DNA of 64,000 nucleotides from Rhizobiaceae bacterium (lineage in GTDB: Bacteria; Pseudomonadota; Alphaproteobacteria; Rhizobiales; Rhizobiaceae): positions 55,538-119,537 of the forward strand of contig JABABQ010000033.1 in NCBI GenBank assembly GCA_014238155.1, written 5' to 3'. The position numbers and the translations under genes are program-made. The notes under the pieces are model-generated. The model saw nothing but the letters and a program-made list of their open reading frames with translations. It was not told where the DNA came from and searched no databases. Of the stretch, positions 35,134 through 60,979 are shown piece after piece; the stretch's first letter is position 1, and each line of letters opens with the position of its first letter.

Positions 35134-36741
35134 ATGACTGATACCGATGCAGCAACGCAACCAGCAACAGGCGGCGGCGGCAACAGCGGAGACGGTGGCA
35201 CCAGCAGGAAGCGGCGCACGCGTAGTGGTGGACGGGAAGGCAATGCCAGACGCGGTGGCCCGGCAATCCGCCAGTATCCCTGGCAGACGGTTATAAATAA
35301 CGACCGCCCAACCGAGCCGATCGACGCAGAATCTGTTAAAAAAATTCACGACACGGCAATGCGGATTCTGGAAGAGATCGGTATTGAGTTCCTCAACCCG
35401 GAGGCCGCGGAAATCCTGCGTCAGCATGGCGCCACGGTAAATGGTGAAAACGTCCGCATGGGGCGGGATATGGTGATGGAGAAAATCGCTCTCGTGCCAT
35501 CGCAATTCACCCTGACTCCGCGCAATCAGGACCGCCAGATCACCATTGGTGGCAAGCATCTGGTTTTTGGCAATGTCTCCAGCCCGCCGAACTGTTCAGA
35601 TCTGGACAATGGTCGTCGCACCGGCACCCGTGAAGACTACAAAAACTTCCTGCGGCTGACCCAATATTTCAATTGCATGCATTTTGCTGGGGGCTATCCG
35701 GTGGAACCGATGGACATCCATCCATCAGTTCGTCACCTCGATTGTCTTTATGACAAGCTGACTTTGACCGACAAGGTCGTGCACGCCTATTCACTGGGCA
35801 AAGAGCGCGTTGAAGACGTTATGGAAATGACCCGCATTGCCGGTGGTCTGACCCACGAAGAATTTGAAGCCTCGCCACGCATGTATACCAATATCAACTC
35901 AACTTCGCCGCTGAAGCACGACTTTCCCATGCTCGATGGCATGATGCGGCTGGCGCGTCGCGGTCAACCGACCATTGTCACGCCCTTCACTCTGGCCGGT
36001 GCAATGGCACCAGTAACAATGGTGGGGGCAGTAACCCAGTCTTTGGCGGAATCGCTGATTGCCATTGTGCTGATCCAGTGCATCCGACCCGGCTGCGCCT
36101 CGGCAATTGGCACATTCACCTCCAATGTGGACATGAAAACCGGCGCTCCGGCGTTTGGCACACCCGACTATGTTCGGGCCACCCAGATTACTGGCCAGAT
36201 GGCACGTTATTATAATCTGCCGATGCGCTCCTCCGGTGTCTGCGCCGCCAATGTGCCCGATGGACAAAGCATGTGGGAATACATGAATTCCATGTGGGCT
36301 GTCATAACCAGTGGCACCAATGTTGTTTATCACGCGGCCGGATGGCTTGAAGGCGGGCTTTGCGCCTCATTTGAAAAATTCGTCATGGACTGCGAAGTGC
36401 TGCAGCAATTTCAGTCCTATCTGAACCCGATGGTTGTTGATGATGCGACCCTTGCATTCGATGCCATCAAGGAAGTTGGCCCCAACGGACATTTCTTTGG
36501 CATTCAACACACCCAGGACCGCTATGAGGATGCGTTCTATAACCCCTTCTTGTCGGACTGGAATAATTACGAGAATTTTGAAGAACGCGGATCGGTTTGG
36601 ACCCACGACCGGGCCAACAAATTGTACAAGCAAATTCTGGAAGAATTCGAACCACCAGAACTCGATCAGGCAATTGACGAAGAGCTCCAGGCATTTGTCG
36701 CCAGGCGCAAGGAAGAAGGCGGTGCACCGACCGATTTTTAA
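35134..36741 (+). CDS. MttB-superfamily (non-pyrrolysine) quaternary-amine:corrinoid methyltransferase with an Arg/Gly-rich N-terminal extension
   Basis: Colinear with the 51820-53367 product (ILEEIGIEF, NINSTSPL/NINSPMVMD, AGWLEGGL, HFFG/HYLG blocks). No in-frame stop. Start set at the ATG preceded by AGGAGG; the ORF track starts at 35044. Confidence 0.8.
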   Translation: MTDTDAATQPATGGGGNSGDGGTSRKRRTRSGGREGNARRGGPAIRQYPWQTVINNDRPTEPIDAESVKKIHDTAMRILEEIGIEFLNPEAAEILRQHGATVNGENVRMGRDMVMEKIALVPSQFTLTPRNQDRQITIGGKHLVFGNVSSPPNCSDLDNGRRTGTREDYKNFLRLTQYFNCMHFAGGYPVEPMDIHPSVRHLDCLYDKLTLTDKVVHAYSLGKERVEDVMEMTRIAGGLTHEEFEASPRMYTNINSTSPLKHDFPMLDGMMRLARRGQPTIVTPFTLAGAMAPVTMVGAVTQSLAESLIAIVLIQCIRPGCASAIGTFTSNVDMKTGAPAFGTPDYVRATQITGQMARYYNLPMRSSGVCAANVPDGQSMWEYMNSMWAVITSGTNVVYHAAGWLEGGLCASFEKFVMDCEVLQQFQSYLNPMVVDDATLAFDAIKEVGPNGHFFGIQHTQDRYEDAFYNPFLSDWNNYENFEERGSVWTHDRANKLYKQILEEFEPPELDQAIDEELQAFVARRKEEGGAPTDF

Positions 36742-36743
36742 CC

Positions 36744-37349
36744 ATGGCCGATTTGGTTTTCTCAAACATGTTCCACGCTCTTGCCAGCGCGCTTGATCAG
36801 GAGGGAGAGTGCAGCGAAAACATCGCCCGGGTCGGGGCAGATGCATTGCGCCGCCATGCCGAGAGTTCCTGCCCTGCCGAAAAGACCTCATTGGCAACTG
36901 GCGAAGAAATATTCAGCCTGTTGCAATCACCAAAGGCCCTGCCCTGTGCGGTCGAAATAACACCGTATATGGACCATTTGTCGTGGCACTATTCGGGCTA
37001 TGAAGACGGAGGCATCAGCGCCGATGTGGCGCTGCGCATGCAAACGGTTGAGCTGATCGGTGCAGACGGCATGATAGATGATCCAACCTGCCGCGTCGGT
37101 CTGTTCGCCCAGACCGCCAACACCGATTATATCATCCGCACCCACTCCGCCGAAGAATTGTTTGTGCAAATAGCCGGTGAAGCTGAATGGTATAAACAAG
37201 GCACACCTTATACAATGCGCCATCCCGGCGATCGCATGCATCACGCAAGCTATCAACCTCACGCTAGTCGCACCATCAATTCCGGCCTGCTGGCTGTTTG
37301 GGTATGGGCGGGTGACTTGGCTTATGAAAATTACAATTATCAGGGCTGA
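36744..37349 (+). CDS. DddQ-like cupin (DMSP-lyase family fold); function uncertain
   Basis: RTHSAEELFVQIAGEA and HHASYQPHA align, from memory, with DddQ WHSHQAEELYLTLAGGA and LHASWQSHA. Starts 2 nt after the MttB stop. Confidence 0.5.
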   Translation: MADLVFSNMFHALASALDQEGECSENIARVGADALRRHAESSCPAEKTSLATGEEIFSLLQSPKALPCAVEITPYMDHLSWHYSGYEDGGISADVALRMQTVELIGADGMIDDPTCRVGLFAQTANTDYIIRTHSAEELFVQIAGEAEWYKQGTPYTMRHPGDRMHHASYQPHASRTINSGLLAVWVWAGDLAYENYNYQG

Positions 37350-37376
37350 CACGCCCCCTATCTTGGAGAATACCAG

Positions 37377-39851
37377 ATGAAATCTCATGCACAGGCAGTC
37401 GTCATCGGCGGAGGCGTGGTCGGATGCTCGGTCCTCTATCACCTGACCAAGGCCGGCTGGAAGGACGTAGTCCTGCTCGAACGCGACCAGCTTACCTGTG
37501 GCTCCACATGGCATGCTGCGGGAGGCTTCCACACACTCAATGGTGACCCCAACGTGGCAAAACTCCAGGCCTATACGATCGATCTCTATGACGAGCTTGA
37601 AGCGATTTCCGGAGAAAAATGTGGCCTGCATCTGACTGGTGGTGTCGCGCTGGCGGAAAATCAGGATCGTTTGGAATGGCTAAAAATGAGCCACGCCCGC
37701 GGCCGCTATCTGGGCATGGAAACCGAGATCATTTCAACCGCCGAAGCCAAGGAAATTTTACCCCTGCTGGAAGAGGAATATTTTGTCGGCGCCATGTGGG
37801 ACCCGGTTGAAGGCCATCTCGACCCCTATGGCACAACCAATGCCTATGCCAAATCTGCCCGCATCGGCGGCGCAGAAATCGAATTGAAGTGCAAAGTTGA
37901 GGAACTCAACTGGGATGAGGCCAAATCGGTCTGGAACATCGTCACTAATAAAGGCACGCTGACAGCCGACCACGTGGTCAATGCCGGCGGTCTGTGGGCC
38001 CGCGAAGTCGGCCGCATGGTCGGCGTGGAATTGCCGGTCCTGGCAATGGAGCACCATTACCTGCTGACCGAAGCGATGCCGGAAGTTGCCGAGATTAATA
38101 AGTCGACCGGTAAGGAAGTTGTTCATGCCATTGATTTTTCCGGCGAGATTTACATTCGTCAGGAACGCGACGGCATGCTGCTTGGCACCTATGAAAAGCA
38201 GGCAACGCCCTGGTCCCCCAAAGACACGCCCTGGGATTTTGCCCAGGAACTTCTCAACCCTGATCTTGACCGTATTGCCCCGTCTCTTGAGGTCGGTTTC
38301 AAACACTTCCCGGCATTTGAGAAGGCCGGAATCCGACGCATCGTCAACGGTCCATTCACCTTTGCGCCAGACGGCAATCCGCTGGTCGGACCAGTTCGCG
38401 GGGTTCCCAATTACTGGTCGGCCTGTGCCGTGATGGCCGGTTTCTCTCAGGGTGGCGGGGTTGGCCTTGCCCTGTCCCAATGGATGGTCAATGGAGATCC
38501 GGGATACGATATCTGGGGCATGGATGTCGCGCGCTTTGGCCCGCACATTACCCGCGACTACACAAATGCCAAAGTACGCGAGAATTATTCTCGCCGCTTC
38601 CGCATTCGTTTCCCGAATGAAGAACTGCCCGCTGCCCGCCCTCACCAGACCACACCACTGTATGACGTGCATCTGGCAAATGGTGCTGTCATGGGCGATT
38701 CCTGGGGTCTGGAAACACCGCTTTGGTACGCGCCGGAGGGCGTTGAGGCGCAGGACGTTTTCTCGTTCCACCGCTCAAACGATTTTGATCACGTCAAGGC
38801 GGAGGTTCTCAATTGCCGCAACAATGTCGGGTTGACCGACATTTCCAACTTCGCCAAATATGAAATAACCGGTCCCAGCGCCCGTGAATGGCTGACCAAT
38901 GTAATGACCAACTTCATTCCAAAAACCGGCCGTCTCGCACTGACTTCGATGGTTACCCATGAAGGCATGATCAATGGTGACTTCACCATTGGCGCTGCTG
39001 GCATCGACCGCTCCGGCCCCAATAAGGGCAATGAACGGTTCCAGATGTGGGGATCAAGTCAGGCCCAAATCTATCACATGCGCTGGTTTGAACAGCACTT
39101 GCCGGAAGACGGTTCGGTACTGATCAGAAATCTCAACCTGTCGATGCTGGGGCTTTCCATTGCCGGCCCGAATGCTCAAAAGGTTCTGGCCAAACTGACC
39201 GATGAAGATGTCTCCAACGATGCCTTCAAATTTATGGATTACCGCGAAACGGTGATTGCCGGTGTTCCGGCCAAACTGAACCGCATCTCCTATTCCGGGG
39301 ATCTGGGCTATGAAATCTGGGTCGATGGGGAGCACCTGCGCCGGCTTCATGACGGTATCATGCAGGCTGGAGAAGAATTTGGCATCAAGCAGTTCGGCAT
39401 GCGGGCGCTGCTGACCATGCGGCTGGAAAAACATTTTGGCACCTGGTTCCGCGAATTCCGCCCCATCTACACGCCTTTTGAAGCTGGACTTGACCGCTTT
39501 GTCTCAAAGAAAAAGAATACTTTTGTTGGACGGGACGGCGTATTTGCCCATGCGGAAAACCCACCACTGACCCGAATCTGCATGAATGTTACCGGCGCAA
39601 CCGACGCGGACTGCATTGGTGATGAACCGATCTTTTTGGGTGACGAGGTGATTGGTTGGGTGACCTCCGGTGGCTATGGTCACTTTGTGAACCAGTCTCT
39701 TGCAACCGGCTACATCCCCACCGAACAACTTGCTGCTGCACGGCAGAATGGACTGAAAGTCGAGATTATTGGCGATATGTGCGCAGCCGAGATTCAGGAC
39801 GAACCGCCATTCGATCCGCTGGGCAAACGAATGCGCGGCGATTTCAGCTAA
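37377..39851 (+). CDS. dimethylglycine dehydrogenase-type enzyme (FAD oxidase domain plus GcvT-like folate-binding domain)
   Basis: VVIGGGVVGCSVLYHL, the covalent-FAD context GSTWHAAGG, and a C-terminal aminomethyltransferase fold (YSGDLGYEIW); 824 aa. Confidence 0.85.
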   Translation: MKSHAQAVVIGGGVVGCSVLYHLTKAGWKDVVLLERDQLTCGSTWHAAGGFHTLNGDPNVAKLQAYTIDLYDELEAISGEKCGLHLTGGVALAENQDRLEWLKMSHARGRYLGMETEIISTAEAKEILPLLEEEYFVGAMWDPVEGHLDPYGTTNAYAKSARIGGAEIELKCKVEELNWDEAKSVWNIVTNKGTLTADHVVNAGGLWAREVGRMVGVELPVLAMEHHYLLTEAMPEVAEINKSTGKEVVHAIDFSGEIYIRQERDGMLLGTYEKQATPWSPKDTPWDFAQELLNPDLDRIAPSLEVGFKHFPAFEKAGIRRIVNGPFTFAPDGNPLVGPVRGVPNYWSACAVMAGFSQGGGVGLALSQWMVNGDPGYDIWGMDVARFGPHITRDYTNAKVRENYSRRFRIRFPNEELPAARPHQTTPLYDVHLANGAVMGDSWGLETPLWYAPEGVEAQDVFSFHRSNDFDHVKAEVLNCRNNVGLTDISNFAKYEITGPSAREWLTNVMTNFIPKTGRLALTSMVTHEGMINGDFTIGAAGIDRSGPNKGNERFQMWGSSQAQIYHMRWFEQHLPEDGSVLIRNLNLSMLGLSIAGPNAQKVLAKLTDEDVSNDAFKFMDYRETVIAGVPAKLNRISYSGDLGYEIWVDGEHLRRLHDGIMQAGEEFGIKQFGMRALLTMRLEKHFGTWFREFRPIYTPFEAGLDRFVSKKKNTFVGRDGVFAHAENPPLTRICMNVTGATDADCIGDEPIFLGDEVIGWVTSGGYGHFVNQSLATGYIPTEQLAAARQNGLKVEIIGDMCAAEIQDEPPFDPLGKRMRGDFS

Positions 39852-39884
39852 AACCCTTACATCTTCAACTCAAGGAGAAGTGAA

Positions 39885-40667
39885 ATGTCCCTCGCTCAGC
39901 ATTATGCAGAAAACGGCTATGTTTCACCGGTGCAATGCATTTCGACCCAACAGGCCGCGGAGCACCGTGCCCGGTTAGAGGAGGTGGAATCGCAGTTCGG
40001 GGACCAGCATTATAAATCCAAAATGCACACCTTGCTGGATTTTGCAGCGGATCTGGCCACCGCCCCGGCCGTGCTGGATGTGGTTGAGCAAATGCTAGGG
40101 CCCGACATCATGCTGTTTGACGTCACCTATATCATCAAGGAGGCCAATTCTGCTTCCCATGTGAGCTGGCATCAGGATCTGACTTACTGGGGTCTTTCCA
40201 ATGACCAGCAGGTGTCCATGTGGCTTGCTTTGTCTGCCGCAACACCGGTATCCGGTTGCATGCGCATGGTGCCGGGCAGCCACAAACAAGGCAGACTGGA
40301 TCACGTCGACAAACAGGATATGTCGAATGTTCTGTTTCGCGGTCAGTCTGTAGATGGTGTCGCGGAAGAAACGGCTATGATGTGTCCGCTGGAGCCGGGC
40401 CAGGCCAGCTTTCATCACGGCTGGACCCTGCACGCTTCGATGCCGAATGAGAGCGACGACCGGCGCATTGGTTTTAACGTACAATATATCAACCCATCAG
40501 CGCGGCAGACATTGCACGATCTGGATACGGCGACTTTGGTACGCGGACGGGACCGGCACAATCACTACCAGCCCGACAGTTTTGCCACCGGTATCATGCA
40601 GGCCATGAACATTGAAGAACACGCCAGACTTGAAAAACGACGCAAGGAAACCTGGGCAAGCGCCTGA
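39885..40667 (+). CDS. phytanoyl-CoA dioxygenase (PhyH) family Fe(II)/2-oxoglutarate oxygenase
   Basis: WHQDLTYW (HxD facial triad), distal His (HHGWTLHAS), RIGF arginine; 260 aa. Confidence 0.75.
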   Translation: MSLAQHYAENGYVSPVQCISTQQAAEHRARLEEVESQFGDQHYKSKMHTLLDFAADLATAPAVLDVVEQMLGPDIMLFDVTYIIKEANSASHVSWHQDLTYWGLSNDQQVSMWLALSAATPVSGCMRMVPGSHKQGRLDHVDKQDMSNVLFRGQSVDGVAEETAMMCPLEPGQASFHHGWTLHASMPNESDDRRIGFNVQYINPSARQTLHDLDTATLVRGRDRHNHYQPDSFATGIMQAMNIEEHARLEKRRKETWASA

Positions 40668-40707
40668 AGCGATTCAGCATTAAATACTGTCGACCAGGGT
40701 TCGCCGC

Positions 40708-41730: not shown

Positions 41731-41885
41731 GGGCCGAATCGTTGCCGGCTCGTATTCTAAAAAAAGGCCTAGCACAGTTAGTCCGCCAATGGGCAGTGCA
41801 ATTACATTAAATTTCAGTCTCACCAAACATTTATCACCGGGATAGCATTTTACCCCCGGTTAATCCGGTTTGGATCTGCAAAACC

Positions 41886-44717: not shown

Positions 44718-44729
44718 TTGGAACTTGGG

Positions 44730-49970: not shown

Positions 49971-51005
49971 ATGGCTGGAAAACTAAAATCCTTGATCGAG
50001 GAAAAAGGCGTACTGCTTGCAGACGGCGCAACGGGCACGAATTTCTTCAATATGGGTCTGCTGTCTGGTGATGCGCCGGAATTGTGGAATGAAGATGCAC
50101 CAGAAAAGGTCAAGGCATTGCATCAGAGCTTTGTCGATTCAGGCTCCGACATTATTTTGACCAACACATTTGGTGGCAACCGGCATCGTCTGAAATTGCA
50201 CAACGCCCAGGACCGCTCGCGGGAACTGAACGAAAAGGCTGCCAGACTTGCCCGCGAGGTCGCCGATTCTTCGTCCAAGACTATTCTGGTTGCCGGTTCC
50301 GTCGGGCCAACCGGTGAATTATTCGTGCCGCTCGGCGAGTTAACCCACGACGCCGCCGTTGCTTCCTTCACCGAACAGATGGAAGGTCTAAAGCAAGGCG
50401 GCGCTGACGTGCTGTGGATTGAAACCATGTCGGCGCGCGAGGAAATCGCCGCAGCTGCGGAGGCTGCCAATGCCGTCGGGCTGGAATATATATTCACCGC
50501 CAGTTTTGATACGGCCGGTCGCACAATGATGGGCATCGCCCCTTCGGAACTTGGTGTATTGGCCAACCAACTGCCCACTCCCCCTACCGCCATCGGCGCT
50601 AATTGCGGGGTTGGTGCAACAGATTTACTGTTTTCCGTACTCGACATGACCGAGGCCGGTCCGACAGCAGAAGGTGGCACGATTGCCGTAATAGCCAAGG
50701 CCAATTGCGGCGTTCCGAGGGTCAGTGGCGATCAGGTCCTGTATACCGGCACGCCTGAATTAATGGCCAAATATGCCCAGCTGGCAATCGACTCCGGCGC
50801 CAGGATAATAGGCGGTTGTTGCGGAACGTCTTCTGAACATTTGGTTGCCATGCGGCAGGCCATCGATGCACATATCAAGGGCCAGCGCCCGACGCTGGAA
50901 GAAGTCGTCGCAGCCACCGGTGAACTGGTCAATCAGATTGCGGCGGCCAGGTCCGAAGATGAAGCAGCTGGCCGCAGCGGACGCCGCAGGGGCAGACGGC
51001 GATAG
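49971..51005 (+). CDS. homocysteine S-methyltransferase-domain protein (betaine-homocysteine methyltransferase-like) with an Arg-rich C-terminal tail
   Basis: LLADGATGTN and ILTNTFGGN motifs, C-terminal zinc-site Cys pair (GGCCGT); the tail reads GRSGRRRGRRR. Confidence 0.8.
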   Translation: MAGKLKSLIEEKGVLLADGATGTNFFNMGLLSGDAPELWNEDAPEKVKALHQSFVDSGSDIILTNTFGGNRHRLKLHNAQDRSRELNEKAARLAREVADSSSKTILVAGSVGPTGELFVPLGELTHDAAVASFTEQMEGLKQGGADVLWIETMSAREEIAAAAEAANAVGLEYIFTASFDTAGRTMMGIAPSELGVLANQLPTPPTAIGANCGVGATDLLFSVLDMTEAGPTAEGGTIAVIAKANCGVPRVSGDQVLYTGTPELMAKYAQLAIDSGARIIGGCCGTSSEHLVAMRQAIDAHIKGQRPTLEEVVAATGELVNQIAAARSEDEAAGRSGRRRGRRR

Positions 51006-51038
51006 AGGTCGTGTCCCATTAGTGGATCCCGCCAATCG

Positions 51039-51698
51039 TCATATATATGCCTTCATGTGAAAAGCCTGATGCGGTTTTTGATACTGATGTGCGCTTCCCA
51101 CCGGACAGGCCAGTCGTGCCAGACAGCCGCCTTCCCGGCAGGCCGTGCCCTTTTGCCCTGCAACATGAGATTTGCAGGCCAGATAGTCGTACCCGTCGAC
51201 AGTAAATGCCGATATCGGACAGGTATTCAAACAGGGCTTGTCTGAGCAATTGTCGCATGGGTGATCGAATTTTCGAGTTTTCGGCAGCTCAAAATTGTCA
51301 GCAAAAACCATCGCCGCCCGAAACGCTGTCCACAATCCATATTCAGGGTGAATCAACAGGCCAATTGGCGACTGATCGATCCCCATGGCTGCCCGCCCAT
51401 AGTCCTGAAACGGCCAGTTGGGTTCGCCAAACGGATATCTGACCTGTACCACCAGCCCGGCAGGCAATTTCTCAGCCAGTGCTGAAATAACGCCCACGGT
51501 CCATCGGTTCATCGGGTCAGCCTTACCGTCGGCAAGCGGGGACGCCCCCGAAAATACTTGCCACTGACTGCTGCCGATATTGCCAATCAACAAAGCAGGC
51601 TGGTCATCAATTTCAAACCATCCAAGCGGTAAAAGACCACTGGGCGACAGAATTTCACGAATATCACTTTCGAGTTTTAAAGCAGTATTATCTGTCAT
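51039..51698 (-). CDS. Fe-S (ferredoxin-type Cys cluster) protein of unknown function. Start uncertain; the ORF is open to 51767.
   Basis: C-terminal CDNCSDKPCLNTCP and CKSH...CREGGCLARLACP motifs. Confidence 0.45.
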   Translation of the reverse strand: MTDNTALKLESDIREILSPSGLLPLGWFEIDDQPALLIGNIGSSQWQVFSGASPLADGKADPMNRWTVGVISALAEKLPAGLVVQVRYPFGEPNWPFQDYGRAAMGIDQSPIGLLIHPEYGLWTAFRAAMVFADNFELPKTRKFDHPCDNCSDKPCLNTCPISAFTVDGYDYLACKSHVAGQKGTACREGGCLARLACPVGSAHQYQKPHQAFHMKAYI

Positions 51699-51819
51699 CA
51701 GATCGCCCCGCTGACGCTCATCCCTTGATAGCCGAACGCCAGACTTCCTGCTGAATGAAGTCGGCAATGAACTCCCGACTTCTCACTTCCCGACAATTTG
51801 GCGCCCTGACCTCGCGTGT

Positions 51820-53367
51820 TCAGGTGAAGGCATCGGGCATAGAGTCCTTTTTATTGGCAACATAGGCGTCCAGCGCCTCCCGTCTGGCAGGGTCGAGTTC
51901 CGGTGCAACGTGGTCGTTGATCCACCTGCGGGCAACGTCATTGGCCCGCTGCGGCGCTGTTTTTGCGCCTTCAACTTCCCACTGCTCAAAGGAATTATTA
52001 TCAGCAATTGTCGAGCGGAAAAAGGCGGTCTTGAAGTTCGCCTGAGTGTGATCACAGCCCAGATAATGGCTGCCCGGTCCGACCTGGCGAATGGCATCCA
52101 TCGCCTGACCATGATCGCTGACATCAACTCCGGCCGCCATTTTCTGCTGAGCCGCAAGCTGGTCGCAGTCCATGACGAATTTCTCGTAAGAACTGACCAG
52201 ACCACCTTCCAGCCAGCCAGCTGAATGCAATGCGAAATTAACACCGCCCAACAGGGTTGGGTTAAGCGTATTGGCGCTTTCATAGGCGGCTTGCGCATCG
52301 GGCATTTTTGACCCGGTCAGCGATCCGCCGGAACGGAAAGGCAGGCCGAACTTGCGGGCAAACTGGGCGGCGCCATAAAGCACCTGTGCCGGTTCCGGCG
52401 TCCCGAAGGCCGGCGCCCCGGATTGCATTGAAATGGACGTTGCAAATGTCCCCATGATCACCGGCGCGCCGGGTCGGCACAATTGCGAAAATGCGATCGC
52501 CGCCTGCGCCTCGGCGAGAACCTGGGTCAGAGTGCCGGCAACGGTCACCGGCGACATCGCTCCACCAACGATAAACGGTGAGATAATTGTCGCCTGCCCG
52601 GCCCGCGCATAGACTTTCAGCGCCCCAAGCATGGTGTCATCCATTACCATTGGCGAGTTGATGTTGATCAGCGAGGTGACGACGCAATTGTTATCAACGA
52701 ATTCTTCGCCAAACAGAATTTTCGACATTTCAACCGTATCGGCCGCCCTTTCCGGCGCGGTCACAGACCCCATATAGGGCTTGTCCGACAGGGTCATATG
52801 GGCGTGAACCATGTCCAGATGGCGCTTGTTGACGACAATGTCGACAGGCTCGCAAACGGTTCCGCCGCTGTGATGCATCGCCGGGGCCATATAGGCCATT
52901 TTCACGAAATTGCGGAAATCTTCCATCGTCGCATAGCGACGCTCACCCTCCAGATCAAGAACGAATGGAGGACCATATACCGGCGCAAATACGGTGTTGT
53001 TGCCACCGATCACTACATTGCGCTCAGGATTGCGGGCATGCTGGGTAAATTCACCCGGTGCTGTCTTCATCAGGTCACGGCACAGGCCTTTTGGAAAATG
53101 AACCCGCTCACCCTGCACATCAGCACCGGCATCTTTCAACATTGCCAGTGCTTCCGCATCATCGCGGAATTCAATTCCAATCTCTTCCAGCACCGTATCG
53201 GCATTGGTTTCAATAATTTCCATCGCTTCGTCGTGGAGAATATCGAACGTTGAGATTTTCCGGCGAATATAGGGCAAGTGCTCGGTAACACCGCTGGTGC
53301 GTTCTGCCCGACGGGCTGCTGCACCACCACCACCGCGTCCGCGTCTTGGAGCTCTGGCTTCACTCAT
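51820..53367 (-). CDS. MttB-superfamily (non-pyrrolysine) quaternary-amine:corrinoid methyltransferase with an Arg/Gly-rich N-terminus
   Basis: 515 aa with MttB-family blocks (VLEEIGIEF, INSPMVMDD, AGWLEGGL, FVMDCDQL) and an uninterrupted frame. The N-terminus reads MSEARAPRRGRGGGGAAARRAE. Confidence 0.85.
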   Translation of the reverse strand: MSEARAPRRGRGGGGAAARRAERTSGVTEHLPYIRRKISTFDILHDEAMEIIETNADTVLEEIGIEFRDDAEALAMLKDAGADVQGERVHFPKGLCRDLMKTAPGEFTQHARNPERNVVIGGNNTVFAPVYGPPFVLDLEGERRYATMEDFRNFVKMAYMAPAMHHSGGTVCEPVDIVVNKRHLDMVHAHMTLSDKPYMGSVTAPERAADTVEMSKILFGEEFVDNNCVVTSLININSPMVMDDTMLGALKVYARAGQATIISPFIVGGAMSPVTVAGTLTQVLAEAQAAIAFSQLCRPGAPVIMGTFATSISMQSGAPAFGTPEPAQVLYGAAQFARKFGLPFRSGGSLTGSKMPDAQAAYESANTLNPTLLGGVNFALHSAGWLEGGLVSSYEKFVMDCDQLAAQQKMAAGVDVSDHGQAMDAIRQVGPGSHYLGCDHTQANFKTAFFRSTIADNNSFEQWEVEGAKTAPQRANDVARRWINDHVAPELDPARREALDAYVANKKDSMPDAFT

Positions 53368-53683: not shown

Positions 53684-54391
53684 ATGCACATGTCTGACGA
53701 AGAAGAAATCATCCTCTCCGAATTGACAACCGAAGAACTCGTTCTGCAAATGCACGACGATCTGTACGACGGTTTGAGAGAGGAAATCGAAGAAGGCACC
53801 AATATCCTGTTGGGTCGGGATTGGGCACCCTACAAAGTGCTGACGGAAGCACTTGTTGAAGGCATGCGCATTGTCGGCGAAGATTTTCGCGACGGTATCC
53901 TGTTTGTGCCCGAAGTTCTGTTGTCGGCAAATGCGATGAAGGGCGGCATGGCTATATTGCGTCCGCTGCTCGCAGCAACCGGTGCGCCGAAACAAGGCAA
54001 AATGATCATCGGCACCGTAAAAGGTGACATTCATGACATCGGCAAAAACCTGGTTGGCATGATGATGGAGGGCGCCGGATTCGACGTCATCGATCTGGGG
54101 ATCAACAACCCGGTGGAGAATTATCTCGACGCCATCGACGAACATGAGCCCGATATTGTTGGCATGTCTGCCCTGCTGACGACGACCATGCCTTACATGA
54201 AAGTTGTGATCGACACGATGAAGGAAAAGGGTATTCGTGATGATTATACCGTGCTGGTGGGTGGTGCGCCGCTGAATGATGAATTTGGCGAAGCCATTGG
54301 TGCCGATGCCTATTGTCGCGATGCAGCGGTGGCTGTGGAAACTGCCAAAGACTACATGACGCGCAAACATAATCAGCGGGCAAGCGCCTGA
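53684..54391 (+). CDS. corrinoid (B12-binding) methyl-carrier protein
   Basis: DxHxxG motif (GDIHDIGKN), SALLTTT, and GGAP in a Rossmann-type B12-binding domain preceded by a helical cap domain. Confidence 0.9.
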   Translation: MHMSDEEEIILSELTTEELVLQMHDDLYDGLREEIEEGTNILLGRDWAPYKVLTEALVEGMRIVGEDFRDGILFVPEVLLSANAMKGGMAILRPLLAATGAPKQGKMIIGTVKGDIHDIGKNLVGMMMEGAGFDVIDLGINNPVENYLDAIDEHEPDIVGMSALLTTTMPYMKVVIDTMKEKGIRDDYTVLVGGAPLNDEFGEAIGADAYCRDAAVAVETAKDYMTRKHNQRASA

Positions 54392-54475
54392 CGCTAAGCT
54401 GCCTGAACTGACCGCAAGATCAAGGCGTCTTCGGACGCCTTTTTTGCAGGCGCAATAAGATGTTAGGATGGTTGC

Positions 54476-55108
54476 ATGAATCAAACTGACAAGCCTGAAG
54501 AAACCCCCGAACCGGCACCTGTGCGGGTCATCGGCTGTGGTATGATTGCCCGCGAAATTCTTGCGGTAACAGAACAATTGGGCCTCACCAACATTGATCT
54601 GAAATGCCTGCCCGCCATGTGGCATCACTATCCCGACAAAATCGCCCCCGGTGTCGATGCAGCTATAAAAAGCGCCAAAGCCGAAGGGATTGAACAGATT
54701 TTCGTCGCTTATGCCGATTGTGGCACCGGTGGTCATTTGGACATGGTCTGCGACAAACACGGGGTCGAGCGCATTGCCGGGCCACATTGTTTTTCTTTCT
54801 ACATGGGCAATCAGGCCTTTGAAGATCAAAGCGACGACCTAATAACCAGCTTTTTCATGACCGATTTTCTGGCCCGCCATTTTGAGACATTTCTGGTTAA
54901 ACCGCTGGGCATGGACCGTCACCCCGAATTGCGCGAGATGTATTTCGGCAATTACACCCGCATGATTTACATTGCCCAGACGGAAGATGAACAATTGACA
55001 AAAAACGCCGTGCGGGCCGCCGAGTTCCTTGGTTTGGAATTTGAAAAACGTCTCACCGGATACGGCGATCTTTCCAACGCATTGGCAGACATTCCCCAGC
55101 CATCATGA
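54476..55108 (+). CDS. DUF1638-family protein (accessory to corrinoid methyltransferase systems)
   Basis: VIGCGMIAREI, LPAMWHHYPDKI, VAYADCGTGG and GPHCFSFYMG blocks typical of DUF1638 as remembered. Confidence 0.65.
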   Translation: MNQTDKPEETPEPAPVRVIGCGMIAREILAVTEQLGLTNIDLKCLPAMWHHYPDKIAPGVDAAIKSAKAEGIEQIFVAYADCGTGGHLDMVCDKHGVERIAGPHCFSFYMGNQAFEDQSDDLITSFFMTDFLARHFETFLVKPLGMDRHPELREMYFGNYTRMIYIAQTEDEQLTKNAVRAAEFLGLEFEKRLTGYGDLSNALADIPQPS

Positions 55109-55136
55109 TTTGCCAGAGGCAGACCTTGGCAGTATT

Positions 55137-55187
55137 GCAATATATTGCGTCGTTCCACGTGTCGCAAATGAGATATTCATATTGCGA
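55137..55187. promoter_or_regulatory. perfect 12-bp palindrome GCAATATATTGC plus a second inverted repeat (TCGCAA-N14-TTGCGA) sharing the ATTGC half-site; candidate operator
   Basis: Read directly in the 274-bp gap upstream of the virulence-factor-domain/MTHFR-like pair. Confidence 0.35.
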
Positions 55188-55382
55188 TTGTCCGATAATG
55201 TCACCGACATAGCGAGGATTATGATTGGCGACCACCGTGCGTCTGTGATAGGCGATAAGCAGAGCCAATTATTCGAAAATTCTCCTGCGAAGTCGTTTTT
55301 GAAGTTGTCCACCGTCGCCCCTACATAAGGATTGGGGCTGACAAAAGCGCATTTTGGCCACCGAAAACATGTGAGGCTTGAT

Positions 55383-55685
55383 ATGGCACAACTTCAAATC
55401 GTTTACTGGCGGGACATTCCGGCACAGATCATGGTCAAGGCCGGGCGTCGCAATCAGGCCAAACGTGAACTGACATTGCGCTTTACCGAAGCCATCGACA
55501 TGGCCGCCATGCGCACTGGTGCTGCCGAGACCGATGAGTATCTGGCTGAATGGCGTCGTGGTGATGCGGTGTCGGTCGGCGATGATCTGGAAGCGGAAGC
55601 CCAGCAGGCAATGGATGCCATTGAAAGTGAATATGACAAGGACAGATTGGTGGCCCTGGTCAAAAATGGAGGTCGCGAAGCATGA
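55383..55685 (+). CDS. small 'virulence factor'-domain (Pfam Virulence_fact-like) protein that accompanies MTHFR genes
   Basis: MAQLQIVYWRDIPAQI N-terminus. ATGA overlap with the MTHFR-like gene. The ORF track starts at 55332 with TTG. Confidence 0.55.
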   Translation: MAQLQIVYWRDIPAQIMVKAGRRNQAKRELTLRFTEAIDMAAMRTGAAETDEYLAEWRRGDAVSVGDDLEAEAQQAMDAIESEYDKDRLVALVKNGGREA

Positions 55686-56548
55686 CCGCAGCAAAAATTG
55701 GCGCCTCAATCGAGGTCAGCGCAAAACACGTCCATGATGGCAAATTGCACGGTGATATGCTGCCCGGCGGTACCCGTGTCTATATTACCGACGTCGGTGT
55801 TGATCCGGTTGCCGACCTGATTGCTGCGGCTCGCAAGGTGACCGACCTTGGTTACCAGGCCGTGCCCCATATTCCGGCACGCCGAATTGAAAGCGAAGCG
55901 GCGTTGGAAGCCCGCCTGTCGGGCATGGCAAATGAGGCCGGTGTCCGCGACATATTGATCATTGCCGGCGAAGCCGACGAGCAAATGGGCCCCTATCCGG
56001 AAGCCCTTGCCGTGCTGCAAACCGGGCTGATTGACACATTGGGCATCAAATATGTAGCCATTGGCGGGCATCCGGAAGGCAATGTGGCCTATGGCGGCCG
56101 CGACGTGATGCAGGTTTTGAAAGACAAGATTGATTTTGGATTGCAGAGCGATGCCGAGTTTCGCATTGCCACGCAATTTGGTTTTGATGGCCCGAAATTC
56201 ATCGATTGGGCACGCTCGGTCAAACAAGCCGGTATTGATGCGCCGATTCATCTGGGCGTCGCGGGGCCAGCAAAAATCACCACGCTGATCAAATATGCGG
56301 CCATGTGTGGTGTTGGCAACTCATTGAATTTCTTCAGGAAGCGCACCAGCGCCATCGCTCAACTGGCAACAAAACATTCGCCTGAAGACGTCGTCAATCC
56401 GATTGAACAGGCCTGGCGCGAGCAGGTTGGCAACATTGCCCAGCTTCATGTCTTTCCGTTTGGTGGGCTTCAGGCATCAGCCGGCTGGTTGACCGACCGT
56501 GGCAGTTTTCAGTTTTCGAATGAAAGCCAGTCTGCAGTTCTGGCCTAA
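55682..56548 (+). CDS. methylenetetrahydrofolate reductase-family protein (second, divergent paralog)
   Basis: TIM-barrel MTHFR blocks (AVPHIPARR, LIIAGE, IGGHPEG, RIATQFGFD, HLGVAGP). Confidence 0.7.
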   Translation: MTAAKIGASIEVSAKHVHDGKLHGDMLPGGTRVYITDVGVDPVADLIAAARKVTDLGYQAVPHIPARRIESEAALEARLSGMANEAGVRDILIIAGEADEQMGPYPEALAVLQTGLIDTLGIKYVAIGGHPEGNVAYGGRDVMQVLKDKIDFGLQSDAEFRIATQFGFDGPKFIDWARSVKQAGIDAPIHLGVAGPAKITTLIKYAAMCGVGNSLNFFRKRTSAIAQLATKHSPEDVVNPIEQAWREQVGNIAQLHVFPFGGLQASAGWLTDRGSFQFSNESQSAVLA

Positions 56549-56587
56549 CAGTTTGCTGACTCGCCGCCCGGTTGCCCGGTTACCCGG

Positions 56588-57469
56588 TTACCCGACGAGA
56601 GCCGGACGAAATTCGGCGACACTTGTATCAAATTCACCGTTGAAGGCGCGGATCGCGTCGGCAGTCAGATCAACCCTGTTGAGCGTGTAGATATGCAGGG
56701 CTGAGACGCCGTTCTGGGCCAGATCACGCACCTGTTCTTCAATCAGTATGCGGGCCACGTCGCTGTGTTTGGCGCGATCATCGCCAGTCGCTTCAAACAG
56801 TGCATGAAAACGGTCGGGAATGCTGGCACCGCATTTGGCCGAAAACTCAATAATGCGTTCAAAATTGGTAATTGGAATGACGCCCGGCACGATATCCCGG
56901 CGGAACCCCTTTTTCTCCGCTTTGTCACGAAAACGATAAAAATCTTCATTGTTGAAAAAATATTGGGTGATCGCCCGATTGGCCCCTGCATCCTGCTTGG
57001 CGATCAGGTTTGCAATGTCGACATCGGATGACTCAGCCATTGGGTGAACTTCAGGATAGGCCGCAACCGATACATCAAATGGATGCAGTCTTTTCAACCC
57101 GGCAATAGCGTCAGCAACGCTGTCAAATCCTGCCAATTTGCCACCGGCGTCTCCCCTAAGAACAACAAGACGGTGAATCCCCTGTTCCCAAAGCTTTTCA
57201 GCAAATTCAAACAGGCTTTCACGGGAAAAATGGCACAGTGCAATATGGGTGGCTGTTGGGACTTCATTCAGGTTTTGCAGGCTGACAGACCAGTCGAAAC
57301 TGCCCTCAATCGCTGAACCGCCTGCGCCAAACGTCACTGTTTGATACGCCGGTTCGAATCGCCGAAGCGCATGGGCACCAGTCATCAACGAACGTTCGGA
57401 TGAAAGTCCCTTGGGTGGAAAATACTCTACGCTAACAACGGGTTGGTCGAAAATTTTTTCTGATGACAT
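56588..57469 (-). CDS. metF: 5,10-methylenetetrahydrofolate reductase
   Basis: SVEYFPPK, TFGAGGS, VVLRGD, ITQYFFN and PGVIPI motifs. Confidence 0.85.
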   Translation of the reverse strand: MSSEKIFDQPVVSVEYFPPKGLSSERSLMTGAHALRRFEPAYQTVTFGAGGSAIEGSFDWSVSLQNLNEVPTATHIALCHFSRESLFEFAEKLWEQGIHRLVVLRGDAGGKLAGFDSVADAIAGLKRLHPFDVSVAAYPEVHPMAESSDVDIANLIAKQDAGANRAITQYFFNNEDFYRFRDKAEKKGFRRDIVPGVIPITNFERIIEFSAKCGASIPDRFHALFEATGDDRAKHSDVARILIEEQVRDLAQNGVSALHIYTLNRVDLTADAIRAFNGEFDTSVAEFRPALVG

Positions 57470-57584
57470 GGGATATTCCTACGGAAGACACGAAGTTAAA
57501 AAACGATCGAACAGGCTTGCTTCATTTGCGACAGTCAGTGTCGTAAAGTGAAACTACATCAAAAATTTCACATGCACAAGGTTG

Positions 57585-57604
57585 ATATAAAGATTTCTTT
57601 ATGT
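57585..57604. promoter_or_regulatory. palindrome ATATAAAG-ATTT-CTTTATGT (7 of 8 arm positions) in the divergent metF / methyltransferase region; candidate operator
   Basis: Same ATAAAG-N4-CTTTAT core as 49930-49945. Confidence 0.45.
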
Positions 57605-57788
57605 TTATTGCTTGAGCGACACAGAAACATATCGCCAACGTCTAAAAATGAGCCGTTTGGTGTCGCATTTGGCACTGCCTCACTGTTCAAAAGACGATGA
57701 TAGTTGCCATAACAAAATTCCGGCCGCGGCCCTGCGCCAACAACGACCAAACCGCGAAGTGACCGGCAATCCAATTGGAGACAGTGAC

Positions 57789-58754
57789 GTGACCAAGACA
57801 ATCGTTGCATCAGCAAGCAAGGAAGTCGTTATCGGCTTTGATCAGAAATTCTGCGTTATTGGAGAGCGCATCAACCCAACCGGTCGCAAGAAGCTTGCTG
57901 CCGAAATGCAGGCCGGCAATTTTGATACGGTCAAGGCGGATGCCCTGGCGCAGGTTGCGGCCGGTGCCACCATGCTGGACATCAATGCCGGTGTTACATC
58001 GGTCGACCCCAATGCCACCGAACCTGCCCTGCTGGTCCAGACCCTGGAGATGGTTCAGGAACTGGTCGATATTCCCCTGTCAATCGATTCTTCCGTCACC
58101 GCTGCTATTGAAGCCGGTCTAAAAGTGGCCAAGGGGCGACCGCTGGTCAATTCAGTGACCGGGGAGACCGAAAAGCTTGAAGCCATATTGCCGCTGATCA
58201 AAAAATACGATGTGCCGGTCGTTGCCATATCCAATGACGAAACCGGCATTTCAGAAGACCCCAACGTGCGTTTTGAAGTTGCCAAGAAGATTGTCGAACA
58301 TGCCGCAGATTATGGCATTCCCGCTCACGATATTGTGGTTGACCCGCTGGTCATGCCGATTGGCGCCATGGGCACTGCTGGCAAACAGGTGTTTGCGCTG
58401 GTGCGCCGCCTGCGCGAAGAACTCGGCGTTAACACCACCTGCGGTCTGTCCAACGTTTCGTTTGGCCTGCCCCACCGTCATGGCATCAATGCCGCCTTTA
58501 TTCCCATGTGCATCGCTTCAGGCATGACAAGCGCGATCATGAATCCCTGCCGTCCCCAGGAAATGGAAATGGTCCATGCGGCGAATGTTTTGGCGGGCGT
58601 CGATCCCGACTGTATGGAATGGATCAGAAATTACAAAGACCGTGTCGCCCTGCAGGGAACATTCCCCGCAACAATGGCAGGCAATCAGGGCGGAACTCCT
58701 ACACCGTCAGGTGCAGGACGTCGTCGTGGGGGCCGCGCAGCGCGTACGGGATGA
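57789..58754 (+). CDS. pterin-binding methyltransferase (methyl-corrinoid:tetrahydrofolate methyltransferase, MtgA/AcsE/MetH-pterin-domain-like) with an Arg/Gly-rich C-terminal tail
   Basis: VIGERINPTGRKK, MLDINAG, LSIDSS and GLSNVSFGLP blocks; the tail reads GAGRRRGGRAARTG. GTG start chosen after GGAGA; the ORF track starts at 57612. Confidence 0.8.
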   Translation: MTKTIVASASKEVVIGFDQKFCVIGERINPTGRKKLAAEMQAGNFDTVKADALAQVAAGATMLDINAGVTSVDPNATEPALLVQTLEMVQELVDIPLSIDSSVTAAIEAGLKVAKGRPLVNSVTGETEKLEAILPLIKKYDVPVVAISNDETGISEDPNVRFEVAKKIVEHAADYGIPAHDIVVDPLVMPIGAMGTAGKQVFALVRRLREELGVNTTCGLSNVSFGLPHRHGINAAFIPMCIASGMTSAIMNPCRPQEMEMVHAANVLAGVDPDCMEWIRNYKDRVALQGTFPATMAGNQGGTPTPSGAGRRRGGRAARTG

Positions 58755-58933
58755 GGAAAATCAATCGGGGGTCAATCGGAATTCGCCAATCGGTTTCAGC
58801 CATCAAAGCGTGTAAAGGCTAATGGGAATCAAATTGAAGGAGCTTTGTGTGCGGAAACCGGGTGAAGGATTACCGGAGGTAACGTTTATACATCTGAAAA
58901 GCTTTGCAGCGGCCGCATACACAGTCCGGCATC

Positions 58934-60979
58934 ATGTCTGATCCACTCGTCATCTTCACCCCAAGCGGCAAGCGCGGAAATTTTCCGGTTGGTACGCCGA
59001 TACTGGATGCAGCGCGCGATCTGGGTGTTTATGTGGAGTCAGTTTGTGGTGGCCGAGGCATTTGCGGACGCTGTCAGGTGGCCCCGGAATTTGGCCATTT
59101 CGCCAAACACGGCATTGAATCGAAACTCGACGCGGTGTCACAATGGTCGGCCAAGGAAATTCGCTATACCGACAAACGAGGCGAACTGGTTGATGGTCGT
59201 CGCCTGTCCTGTTCGACAACTATTCAGGGTCCGCTGGTTGTCGATATTCCAGCCGACACGGTGGTCAACCAACAAACCATCCGCAAGGCCGTCGACACCC
59301 GTCTGATTGAACGCAATCCGGCAATCCAGATGTGCTTCGTCGAAGTCGACGAGCCTGACATGCACAAGCCTCTGGGAGATCTCGACCGGTTGAAAGCCGT
59401 ACTCGAGCGCGAATGGGGGTATAGCGATATTCTCGTGTCGCAGCACATTTTGCCGATTGTCCAGAAGGTACTGCGCGATGGCAAATGGTCCGTTACCGCG
59501 GCCATCCATCAGGATCTGGAATCCTCCCGCCCGACAATGATTGCGCTTTATCCGGGACTGAAAAACAATGCCTATGGAATTGCTTGTGATATCGGTTCAA
59601 CCACCATCGCAATGCACCTGTCCTCGTTGTTGTCAGGCCGAACTCTGGCGTCATCTGGCACCTCCAATCCACAGATCCGATTTGGCGAAGACGTTATGAG
59701 CCGGGTGTCCTACGTAATGATGAATCCCGACGGGCGCGTTGCCATGTCAAAGGCGGTTCGCGATGCGATCAATGGTTTGATCCAGAACGTCTGCGCCGAA
59801 GCCGGGATTGATCCGACCGATATTCTCGACAGTGTTTTTGTCGGCAATCCGATCATGCATCATCTGTTTCTCGGCATCGATCCGACCGAACTTGGCGGGG
59901 CCCCATTTGCACTTGCGGTTTCCGGTGCCGTCCACACCTGGGCGACCGAACTTGATCTGCACATGAATGAAGGCACCCGCGTCTATATGCTGCCCTGTAT
60001 TGCCGGGCATGTCGGTGCCGATGCCGCTGCTGCAACTTTGTCGGAAGCGCCCCACAAGGAAGTGGAACTGTCGCTTTTGGTGGATGTGGGGACCAATGCA
60101 GAAATCGTGCTCGGCCAACAGGGACGCACCCTGGCCTGCTCGTCCCCCACCGGCCCGGCATTTGAAGGTGCTGAAATTTCCTGCGGCCAGCGTGCTGCAC
60201 CCGGTGCGATTGAACGGGTCAGGATTGATCCGGTCACACTGGAACCCCGCATCCGCATTATTGGCGTCGACATGTGGTCAAACGAACCGGGTTTTGCCGA
60301 ACTGGCAAAAGCCACAGGTGTGACTGGCATTTGCGGTTCCGGTATCATCGAAGTGATGGCAGAAATGTTTCTGGCCGGCATCATCGATGAAGACGGCGTG
60401 CTGGATGGATCGAAAGCTGCCATTTCAGACCGCATATTCGAAGAAAAACGCACTTTCAGCTACCGTCTTTGGGAAACCGAAGATGGCCCCAATATCACCG
60501 TTGCGCAGACCGATGTGCGGGCCATCCAGATGGCCAAGGCGGCGCTCTATGCCGGCGTCAAACTGCTGATGGAAAAACATGGTGCGCAGACGGTCGCCAA
60601 AATTAATCTCGCCGGTGCATTCGGCACCTTTATTGATCCGAAATATGCGCTGGTCCTGGGGCTGGTTCCGGACTGCGAAATCGCCAATGTCCGGGCAGTT
60701 GGAAATGCTGCAGGAACCGGTGCGCGCATGGCGCTGTTGAACCGGGTGCATCGGCGTGAAATCGAAGACACTGTCCAGAGTATCGAAAAAATAGAAACCG
60801 CGCTGGAACCCAAATTCCAGGAACATTTCGTTAACGCAATGGCGTTTCCCAACAAGGTTGATCAATTCCCGCGACTGGAAGCCGAGATCAAATTGCCGGT
60901 GCGGCGGTCTGGGCCGTCGTCTGATGCAGATGACGCCGGCTCACCCAGACGTCGTCGCGGTGGTCGCCGTCGGGCTTAA
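58934..60979 (+). CDS. RACE-type reductive activator of corrinoid enzymes (N-terminal [2Fe-2S] ferredoxin plus ASKHA ATPase domain) with an Arg-rich C-terminal tail
   Basis: CGGRGICGRCQV and LSCST ferredoxin cysteines, ASKHA phosphate motifs (ACDIGSTTIA, LVDVGTNAEIV); the tail reads SPRRRRGGRRRA. Confidence 0.8.
   Translation: MSDPLVIFTPSGKRGNFPVGTPILDAARDLGVYVESVCGGRGICGRCQVAPEFGHFAKHGIESKLDAVSQWSAKEIRYTDKRGELVDGRRLSCSTTIQGPLVVDIPADTVVNQQTIRKAVDTRLIERNPAIQMCFVEVDEPDMHKPLGDLDRLKAVLEREWGYSDILVSQHILPIVQKVLRDGKWSVTAAIHQDLESSRPTMIALYPGLKNNAYGIACDIGSTTIAMHLSSLLSGRTLASSGTSNPQIRFGEDVMSRVSYVMMNPDGRVAMSKAVRDAINGLIQNVCAEAGIDPTDILDSVFVGNPIMHHLFLGIDPTELGGAPFALAVSGAVHTWATELDLHMNEGTRVYMLPCIAGHVGADAAAATLSEAPHKEVELSLLVDVGTNAEIVLGQQGRTLACSSPTGPAFEGAEISCGQRAAPGAIERVRIDPVTLEPRIRIIGVDMWSNEPGFAELAKATGVTGICGSGIIEVMAEMFLAGIIDEDGVLDGSKAAISDRIFEEKRTFSYRLWETEDGPNITVAQTDVRAIQMAKAALYAGVKLLMEKHGAQTVAKINLAGAFGTFIDPKYALVLGLVPDCEIANVRAVGNAAGTGARMALLNRVHRREIEDTVQSIEKIETALEPKFQEHFVNAMAFPNKVDQFPRLEAEIKLPVRRSGPSSDADDAGSPRRRRGGRRRA

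Follow-up and report, generated by a model that had tools for sequence, protein, structure and literature searches.

Arginine-rich terminal tags on the enzymes of an MtgBCDE-type methyl transfer system: a candidate docking motif for the shared corrinoid carrier MtgC

The window analyzed here is a stretch of 64,000 nucleotides (nt) from a Rhizobiaceae bacterium (GenBank assembly GCA_014238155.1, contig JABABQ010000033.1; guanine-cytosine [GC] content ~54%), and it encodes a cobalamin-dependent methyl transfer system in which five proteins begin or end with a short peptide rich in arginine and glycine. We find this peptide, referred to as the tag, to be conserved in four protein families of unrelated fold that share one acidic corrinoid carrier, MtgC, which itself has a conserved acidic N-terminal extension. 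We propose that the tags may dock these enzymes on MtgC. A preliminary description of this DNA had noticed the five peptides and suggested a common sorting, docking, or co-assembly tag; it listed the corrinoid carrier only as an untagged neighbor, and the acidic extension went unmentioned. It also overlooked what unites the five proteins, which is that each is a client of the same corrinoid carrier.

Gene identities were assigned by Pfam and NCBIfam profile matches, and by these matches the genes in question are an MtgBCDE glycine-betaine demethylase/split methionine synthase system (Table 1). This system has been described in Ruegeria pomeroyi, Phaeobacter inhibens, and Sinorhizobium meliloti, where MtgC is the hub for the methyltransferase MtgB, the bidirectional pterin methyltransferase MtgD, the homocysteine methyltransferase MtgE, and a RamA-like activase, and where DUF1638 is an essential companion (PMC12478193, PMC5764234). 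The dual activity, glycine-betaine demethylation and methionine synthesis, has been shown for R. pomeroyi and P. inhibens only (PMC12478193, PMC5764234). The window contains two MttB-superfamily methyltransferases of the non-Pyl type (MttB1 and MttB2), a stand-alone MtgC-type carrier, separate MtgD and MtgE, and a reductive activase of corrinoid proteins (RACo) together with DUF1638. The activase and DUF1638 are associated with the cluster, and synteny is conserved across related loci. MtgC is 85% identical to the cobalamin-binding protein encoded in the S. meliloti mtg cluster, the closest structure to the window MttB is an S. meliloti-type homolog (PDB 4YYC), and the NCBIfam model matched by MtgE, NF005718, is the equivalog named "betaine-homocysteine S-methyltransferase." The window thus has the same families in the same cluster, with MtgC as the hub, as the three described organisms, and the S. 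meliloti proteins have the same tags. As judged from these assignments, the five tagged proteins (MttB1, MttB2, MtgD, MtgE, and RACo) are precisely the set that would have to dock on MtgC.

The coordinate ranges given for the five peptides in the preliminary description all translate exactly as stated there and fall inside long open reading frames (ORFs). MttB1 most likely starts at the ATG at 35134, with AGGAGG 8 nt upstream, and MttB2 starts at the ATG at 53367; with these starts the N-terminal stretches of both proteins are translated. Both termini of the 55 window proteins were scored as the sum of arginine and glycine residues in the best 12-residue window containing at least three arginines. 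The five named proteins scored 8 to 10, while every other terminus scored 7 or less; the chance of the five top termini among 110 falling one per named protein is ~32/1.2e8, or ~3e-7. By this scoring the corrinoid protein, DUF1638, both MTHFR-like genes, DMGDH, GcvTHP, and the M24 protein have no tag, which bears out the earlier statement that the neighboring genes lack it. In the six-frame translation there are eight occurrences of a strict form of the core (RRRG{1,2}R, RRGRGG, or RRRGRR): four belong to the reading frames of named proteins, and four fall in non-coding frames. The longest exact k-mer common to any pair of tail-coding segments is at most 10 nt. The clients are all acidic, with isoelectric points (pI) of 5.1-6.3 and net charges of -3 to -17. 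A 451-residue ORF at 32375-33730 (+ strand), which has no significant family match, contains an internal RRGGIRSERRIG stretch, and its C-terminus is mildly basic (score 7). No other non-client has a comparable arginine/glycine patch, and here the patch is not terminal.

The preliminary description also held that the tag lies outside the recognizable catalytic folds. This is true of RACo and MtgD, where the tag lies beyond the limits of structures or family profiles, but not wholly so of MttB and MtgE, where the tag forms part of the family models. The AcsV profile and the structure 3ZYY both stop at approximately RACo residue 645-647, leaving the final ~32 residues as an extension, and NF005719 spans only residues 21-286 of MtgD. 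The Pfam MTTB profile, on the other hand, begins within the tag itself (profile position 2-3 at MttB2 residue 14), and the NF005718 alignment reaches MtgE residue 340 of 344. In an AlphaFold2 model of RACo built with 24 homologs (moderate confidence; mean predicted local distance difference test score [pLDDT] 63.5), residues 660-681 had pLDDT below 50, and the last ~22 residues are accordingly of low confidence and modeled as unstructured.

Conservation was followed in 160 related loci with GC contents of 38-72%. Half of these came from genomes (Rhizobiaceae, Mesorhizobium, Hoeflea, Roseibium, Rhodobacteraceae, and others) and half from metagenomes, the metagenome scan being seeded with distant tagged RACo proteins; most of the 80 genome loci retain the order MttB-corrinoid protein-DUF1638-PF13769-(MTHFR)-pterin methyltransferase-RACo. 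A C-terminal tag was defined as at least four arginines within the last 15 residues, and an MttB tag as at least four arginines in the 32 residues preceding the LPYI anchor. The C-terminal tag was found in 98% of RACo (n=153) and 90% of MtgD (n=80) proteins and in all 12 MtgE orthologs (100%), and the N-terminal tag in 78 of 78 distinct MttB N-terminal regions (100%), with a median of seven arginines. The remaining MtgD orthologs, for example those of Ensifer and Rhizobium, continue for 8-15 residues beyond the motif, so that its position is near-terminal and it does not rely on a free end. The same C-terminal definition picked out 2% of DUF1638 (n=93), 1% of PF13769, and 3% of corrinoid proteins, and 0% of MttB C-termini, unk242, MTHFR-like, and MetF proteins. 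In a count of ORFs, 50 of 66 RACo and 36 of 37 pterin methyltransferase ORFs were tagged versus 8 of 1181 others, and these eight comprise two truncated pterin-methyltransferase/homocysteine-methyltransferase copies and others that resemble shadow ORFs. When 80 loci were searched for additional families with the tag, the hits were shadow ORFs or truncated copies of known families; the candidate L080:218-754 was rejected as a spurious ORF rich in arginine, proline, and glycine and without a family match. The preliminary description had raised three doubts, that such termini might be equally frequent on unrelated proteins, that they might not be conserved in orthologs, and that they might lie beyond the real start or stop codons. 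None is borne out, with 0-3% of non-clients tagged, the tag kept in 90-100% of orthologs in four families, and all five peptides inside their ORFs. Between the pterin methyltransferase and RACo genes of S. meliloti there is a 112-residue hypothetical gene (L166:20957-21295; homologs in loci L019, L022, and L030), absent from the window, and this Ensifer/Rhizobium protein ends in a basic, helix-like ...RPYAKRVRANARRLAK.

The pattern of conservation within the terminal regions is that of a motif on a variable linker. In 120 RACo homologs of at least 71% identity, nearly all of the proteins end in PRRRGGRRR[AG], RRRREGRRRRG, or PRRRSREERAARRxR, while the 15-25 residues preceding the motif vary freely; between genera the linkers are wholly different and the motif is kept. 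Positional arginine frequency is 0.5-0.8 in the last eight residues versus ~0.1 in the preceding linker. Across families the tag approximates RRRGGR[A/E]ARR, usually with five to eight arginines per 10-15 residues and a linker of 10-25 residues, and it takes forms such as PRRRRGGRRRA, GRRGRGGGGAAARRAER, GAGRRRGGRAARTG, APRRGRGGGGAAARRAER, and GRSGRRRGRRR. MtgB of the MttB family has it at the N-terminus, and MtgD, MtgE, and RACo have it at the C-terminus. In a lineage of ~39% GC the tags read MARERRRRRGG- (MttB), -GRRRRRRA (pterin methyltransferase), and -KVRRRKRAP (RACo). The protein bodies at these loci contain 4.0% arginine and 5.7% lysine and the tags 41% and 14%, so arginine is enriched approximately ten-fold in the tags and is three-fold more frequent there than lysine, although lysine is the commoner residue in the bodies. 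Among the tagged S. meliloti proteins are the product of the "bmt" gene and 4YYC, the MttB homolog that was crystallized.

By this pattern of conservation the tag is a short linear motif under selection, placed at either terminus of four unrelated folds, namely those of the MttB-type methyltransferase, the pterin-binding methyltransferase, the homocysteine methyltransferase domain, and the activase, which is of ASKHA type. It has the usual marks of such motifs: it is short and outside the fold (with the proviso that the MttB and MtgE family models reach into it), it is conserved amid a variable linker, and it occurs on unrelated proteins with a common partner. Twin-arginine translocation (Tat) signals and RGG boxes are likewise arginine-rich terminal peptides, but the tag has no h-region or signal-peptidase site, occurs at C-termini as well, and does not repeat RGG triplets. 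A Tat signal peptide was rejected on the grounds that no hydrophobic stretch follows the MttB arginine cluster and that three families are tagged C-terminally. An RGG/RG-box RNA-binding motif was rejected given the single arginine cluster per protein and the common glycine-free poly-arginine variants (RRRRRRG, RRERRGRRR). An encapsulin or microcompartment targeting peptide was also rejected, as there are no shell genes among the annotated window genes and the tag is without hydrophobic residues.

Of all proteins in the cluster, MtgC is the most acidic (pI 4.4, net charge -23). Its N-terminal extension follows the pattern [DE]x[DE][IF]xLxxLxDxELxxQxHDDLY[DN]GL in every locus where MtgC was recovered and has a median net charge of -10 over 72 distinct MtgC orthologs. 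The conserved hydrophobic spacing within it suggests an extra amphipathic helix; a single-sequence AlphaFold2 model of MtgC had a mean pLDDT of 40.6. Corrinoid proteins of anaerobes (1Y80, 7XCN_M [MttC], and 4JGI) align only from MtgC residues 17-25 onward and are without the first acidic ~12-16 residues.

Systems without tags served as controls. In a survey of RACo representatives at 50% identity, full-length proteins at least ~42% identical to the window RACo were mostly tagged, and most of the more distant ones stop directly after the last domain. The structure 3ZYY (C. hydrogenoformans RACo) ends at the position of window RACo residue 647 and has no tag, and neither D. hafniense MtgB (2QNE) nor M. 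barkeri MttB (7XCL) has an N-terminal tag. At two Desulfobacterales loci (L164 and L165), RACo, the adjacent corrinoid protein, and the methyltransferases of MtrH and URO-D type are all untagged, and the corrinoid protein (L165) has no acidic extension. An Acetoanaerobium locus (L167) similarly has RACo, corrinoid protein, and methyltransferases without tags and a corrinoid protein without the acidic extension. Two alphaproteobacterial matches from a plasmid collection (H9 and H31) were considered as alternative corrinoid proteins and rejected as classical fused MetH, which have no tag at the end. The tag and the acidic extension thus appear together in split MtgC-type systems and are absent together elsewhere. 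Five of the distant RACo representatives (P0137, P0154, P0165, P0169, and P0189) are 850-1150 residues long and have extra C-terminal domains instead of a tag, which points to fusion as the means of partner recruitment in other lineages.

Because four unrelated folds all must transiently dock on MtgC, we propose that the tags are a tethered electrostatic docking motif for this shared acidic carrier, a reading to which we give an even chance. MtgC shuttles the methyl group and needs re-reduction once oxidized. The cationic tag would capture the acidic N-terminal helix or extension of the MtgC cap domain, or the acidic surface of MtgC generally, and so raise the encounter rate and the local concentration of client and carrier. 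In doing so it would substitute for the covalent interdomain linkers of classical MetH, and it may also hold the cap clear of the cofactor while catalysis proceeds. Since all clients use the same tag they would compete for one site, and MtgC would be time-shared among them. Both the physical binding of the tag to MtgC and its kinetic role are what we infer. Somewhat more doubtful is a broader evolutionary scheme, in which four folds independently gained the tag and the carrier gained the acidic helix after one clade of aerobic bacteria split the B12 machinery, giving a portable code of arginine tag and acidic handle by which the carrier would serve methyl donors, methyl acceptors, and its own repair enzyme in turn.

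There is precedent for such a role of the carrier N-terminus. The cap has to shift out of the way in known complexes, and the cap or N-terminal appendages supply much of the partner interface: the MtaC N-terminal extension docks in a groove of MtaB and stabilizes the complex, and cap-domain contacts dominate the MttB-MttC interface (PMC9842639). The MtaC-MtaB and MttB-MttC pairs (PDB 2I2X, 7XCN; PMC9842639) thus resemble the proposed arrangement in that the partner is recognized through a cap or N-terminal appendage on the corrinoid protein. They differ in that their interfaces are between folded domains and specific to one methyltransferase, whereas here a single short charged motif is found on four client folds and the carrier appendage is an acidic segment of ~16-25 residues. 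Classical MetH likewise arranges four activities (homocysteine, folate, cap plus cobalamin, and reactivation) around one cobalamin domain; its modules are covalently tethered and there is no arginine tag at its end, whereas here the activities reside on separate polypeptides and the tag may be a non-covalent tether. Hubs recognized via a common charged motif are familiar from other settings, including the acidic C-terminal tip of single-stranded DNA-binding protein (SSB), acyl carrier protein (ACP) with the basic patches of its partners, and the arginine anchors that engage the nucleosome acidic patch. As in our proposal, these involve unrelated clients, one electrostatic determinant, a disordered motif, and competition for one site. 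The likeness is one of analogy and not homology, as the proteins are others, no corrinoid methyl transfer is involved, and the polarity in SSB is opposite.

Several observations weigh against docking on MtgC. The tags and the extension are nearly invariant within the clade, so their co-occurrence is a clade-level contrast and possibly reflects one evolutionary event. The charges of the MtgC extension and of the tags did not covary significantly over 77 loci (Spearman -0.09 to -0.17), in a test of low power because both features are nearly invariant. Systems of anaerobes work untagged, so corrinoid methyl transfer has no mechanistic need of the tag. Arginine-rich ends with no recognizable cluster nearby are found on a few distant RACo proteins. 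The example is P0210 (loci L081-L083), a very divergent RACo-like protein ending in ...TRRRGGRRARLEKNQ and without a methyltransferase cluster within 10 kb; its neighbors are unrelated (CHAP, trypsin/PDZ, and HemolysinCabind). Finally, the acidic and always adjacent DUF1638 is not separable from MtgC as the receptor by these data. The earlier suggestion of a common docking or co-assembly tag is partly supported: the tag is conserved, restricted to four families, independent of GC content, and absent from tail-less sister systems, but nothing found points specifically to the RNA, polyphosphate, condensate, or compartment offered as receptors.

One alternative is that the tag docks on another shared protein, which would most likely be DUF1638 acting as a scaffold or cofactor-handling platform, or else PF13769 or an unlinked protein. 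DUF1638 is acidic (net charge -14), its gene adjoins the carrier gene in nearly every locus, and it is missing from the two tail-less control loci; in addition, DUF1638 mutants phenocopy mutants in the split MetH genes, and the RamA-like protein matches it in phyletic profile (PMC5764234). Contact with DUF1638, however, is not known to be needed by MtgB, MtgD, or MtgE, all of which have to contact MtgC, and DUF1638 is without an obvious clade-specific acidic appendage of the kind seen in MtgC. PF13769 is near neutral (net charge -2). We consider a protein receptor other than MtgC unlikely.

Alternatively, the target of the tag could be a polyanion other than a protein (RNA or the nucleoid, polyphosphate, anionic membrane lipids, or polyglutamylated folate), which would bring the enzymes together within a condensate or at a surface. 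Arginine-rich, glycine-containing disordered peptides are classic polyanion binders, and arginine is favored over lysine in the tag even in low-GC genomes; that the tag works at either terminus would also fit. Each protein, however, has a single short cluster and no repeated RGG boxes, and the MTHFRs, DMGDH, GcvTHP, and DUF1638 are untagged though co-localization would benefit them equally. A clade-specific acidic feature that matches the tag is present on the hub protein, and no scaffold genes or shell genes are found among the annotated window genes. Binding of a polyanion therefore seems to us improbable, to much the same degree as a different protein receptor.

A third possibility, for which we see little likelihood, is that the tag acts in cis or on the fate of the protein, by balancing charge or aiding solubility, by autoinhibition of the carrier-binding face, or as a ClpXP/Lon-type protease signal that co-regulates turnover. 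The acidity of all five clients would suit a charge-balancing role, but the corrinoid protein, DUF1638, and MetF are equally acidic and untagged, and solubility does not require conservation at the level of a motif. Basic C-terminal degrons exist, for example ClpX C-motif 2. A degron acting through the free end is at odds with the N-terminal position of the motif in MttB and with its position 8-15 residues from the end in Ensifer and Rhizobium MtgD. An artifact of GC-rich compositional drift, mis-called starts or stops, or a translated DNA repeat has almost no chance of being correct: out-of-frame ORFs of GC-rich loci are often arginine-rich, but the conservation data refute each of these, as protein-level conservation of the tag extends over GC contents of 38% to 72%, the tail segments share no DNA repeat, the tag lies within the family models of two families and in the crystallized construct 4YYC, and tagged ORFs are concentrated in RACo and the pterin methyltransferase.

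The pathway itself is already known, and the tag and acidic MtgC extension seem not to have been described before. The two papers on the system (PMC12478193, PMC5764234) cover genetics, proteomics, and distribution and make no mention of arginine tails, an acidic MtgC extension, or client-hub recognition; the words "arginine" and "tail" occur 0 times in PMC12478193 and in a related bioRxiv preprint, and "arginine-rich" and "C-terminal tail" 0 times in PMC5764234. Literature searches on arginine-rich tails of corrinoid-system proteins found nothing relevant, in agreement with the preliminary description, which knew of no described function for the tag. It was not until 2025 that MtgBCDE became recognized as a major way in which abundant bacteria of sea and soil demethylate glycine betaine and synthesize methionine, and a client tag paired with a carrier handle offers a concrete hypothesis for partner exchange among enzymes competing for one corrinoid carrier. 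If it is correct, the tag would predict new MtgC clients genome-wide and would be transplantable, wiring new enzymes onto the B12 carrier. Possible uses include a signature for finding clients, the sorting of MtgC-type from anaerobe-type systems in metagenomes, and a handle for engineering B12-dependent methyl transfer. Should the tag bind something else, it would still mark an unrecognized property common to these enzymes.

Table 1. Window positions of the system components, their terminal tags, and the cobalamin biosynthesis genes.
Feature	Position	Strand	Family match, sequence, or remark
MttB-family methyltransferase paralog 1, MttB1 (MtgB-like)	35134..36741	+	Pfam MTTB (PF06253), 5e-219
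MttB1 N-terminal tag region	35170-35259	+	GGGGNSGDGGTSRKRRTRSGGREGNARRGG
MttB-family methyltransferase paralog 2, MttB2 (MtgB)	51820..53367	-	Pfam MTTB (PF06253), 6e-227
MttB2 N-terminal tag	53302-53367	-	MSEARAPRRGRGGGGAAARRAE
Homocysteine S-methyltransferase MtgE, annotated "Bhmt"	49971..51005	+	Pfam S-methyl_trans (PF02574); NCBIfam NF005718, 504 bits
MtgE C-terminal tag	50964-51002	+	AAGRSGRRRGRRR
Methyl-tetrahydrofolate:corrinoid methyltransferase MtgD, pterin-binding	57789..58754	+	Pfam Pterin_bind (PF00809); NCBIfam NF005719; probable GTG start at 57789
MtgD C-terminal tag	58707-58751	+	SGAGRRRGGRAARTG
RACo/RamA-type reductive activase of corrinoid proteins	58934..60979	+	Pfam RACo_linker, Raco_middle, RACo_C_ter
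RACo C-terminal tag	60938-60976	+	GSPRRRRGGRRRA
Corrinoid carrier MtgC, cap and B12-binding domain	53690..54391	+	Pfam B12-binding_2 (PF02607), B12-binding (PF02310)
MtgC conserved acidic N-terminal extension	~53690-53770	+	MSDEEEIILSELTTEELVLQMHDDLYD, MSDDEIILSELSDDELVQQMHDDLYDGL type
DUF1638 protein, untagged	54476..55108	+	Pfam DUF1638 (PF07796); pI 4.8
Cobalamin cluster, CobB/CobQ-type amidases	4404-5702, 24506-26038		
Cobalamin cluster, CbiD	6616-7719		
Cobalamin cluster, CbiG/methylase	10323-12149		
Cobalamin cluster, CbiX	14737-15885		
Cobalamin cluster, CobN	18040-21834		

A cobalamin biosynthesis cluster occupies window positions 1-26100 and directly adjoins the Mtg genes, whose products depend on B12; the same arrangement has been reported in S. 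meliloti. Next to MttB2, at 51039-51767 (- strand), lies a gene for a protein of 220-242 residues with a Cys-rich C-terminus (CDNCSDKPCLNTCP) and a weak MMACHC/CblC-like match, for which no Pfam or NCBIfam family scored above threshold. It is kept beside MttB2 in ~27 related loci, is annotated "ferredoxin" in S. meliloti, and could be a B12-processing or electron-transfer component.

The window also encodes MetF. A small PF13769 "Virulence_fact" protein gene (55332-55685, + strand), found in most related loci, overlaps a divergent MTHFR-like gene (55682-56548, + strand) by 4 nt, and in S. meliloti an extra gene annotated "MTHFR C-terminal domain" lies between the PF13769 and MTHFR-like genes. 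The PF13769/MTHFR-like pair is probably a multi-subunit, MetF2-like enzyme that oxidizes methyl-tetrahydrofolate.

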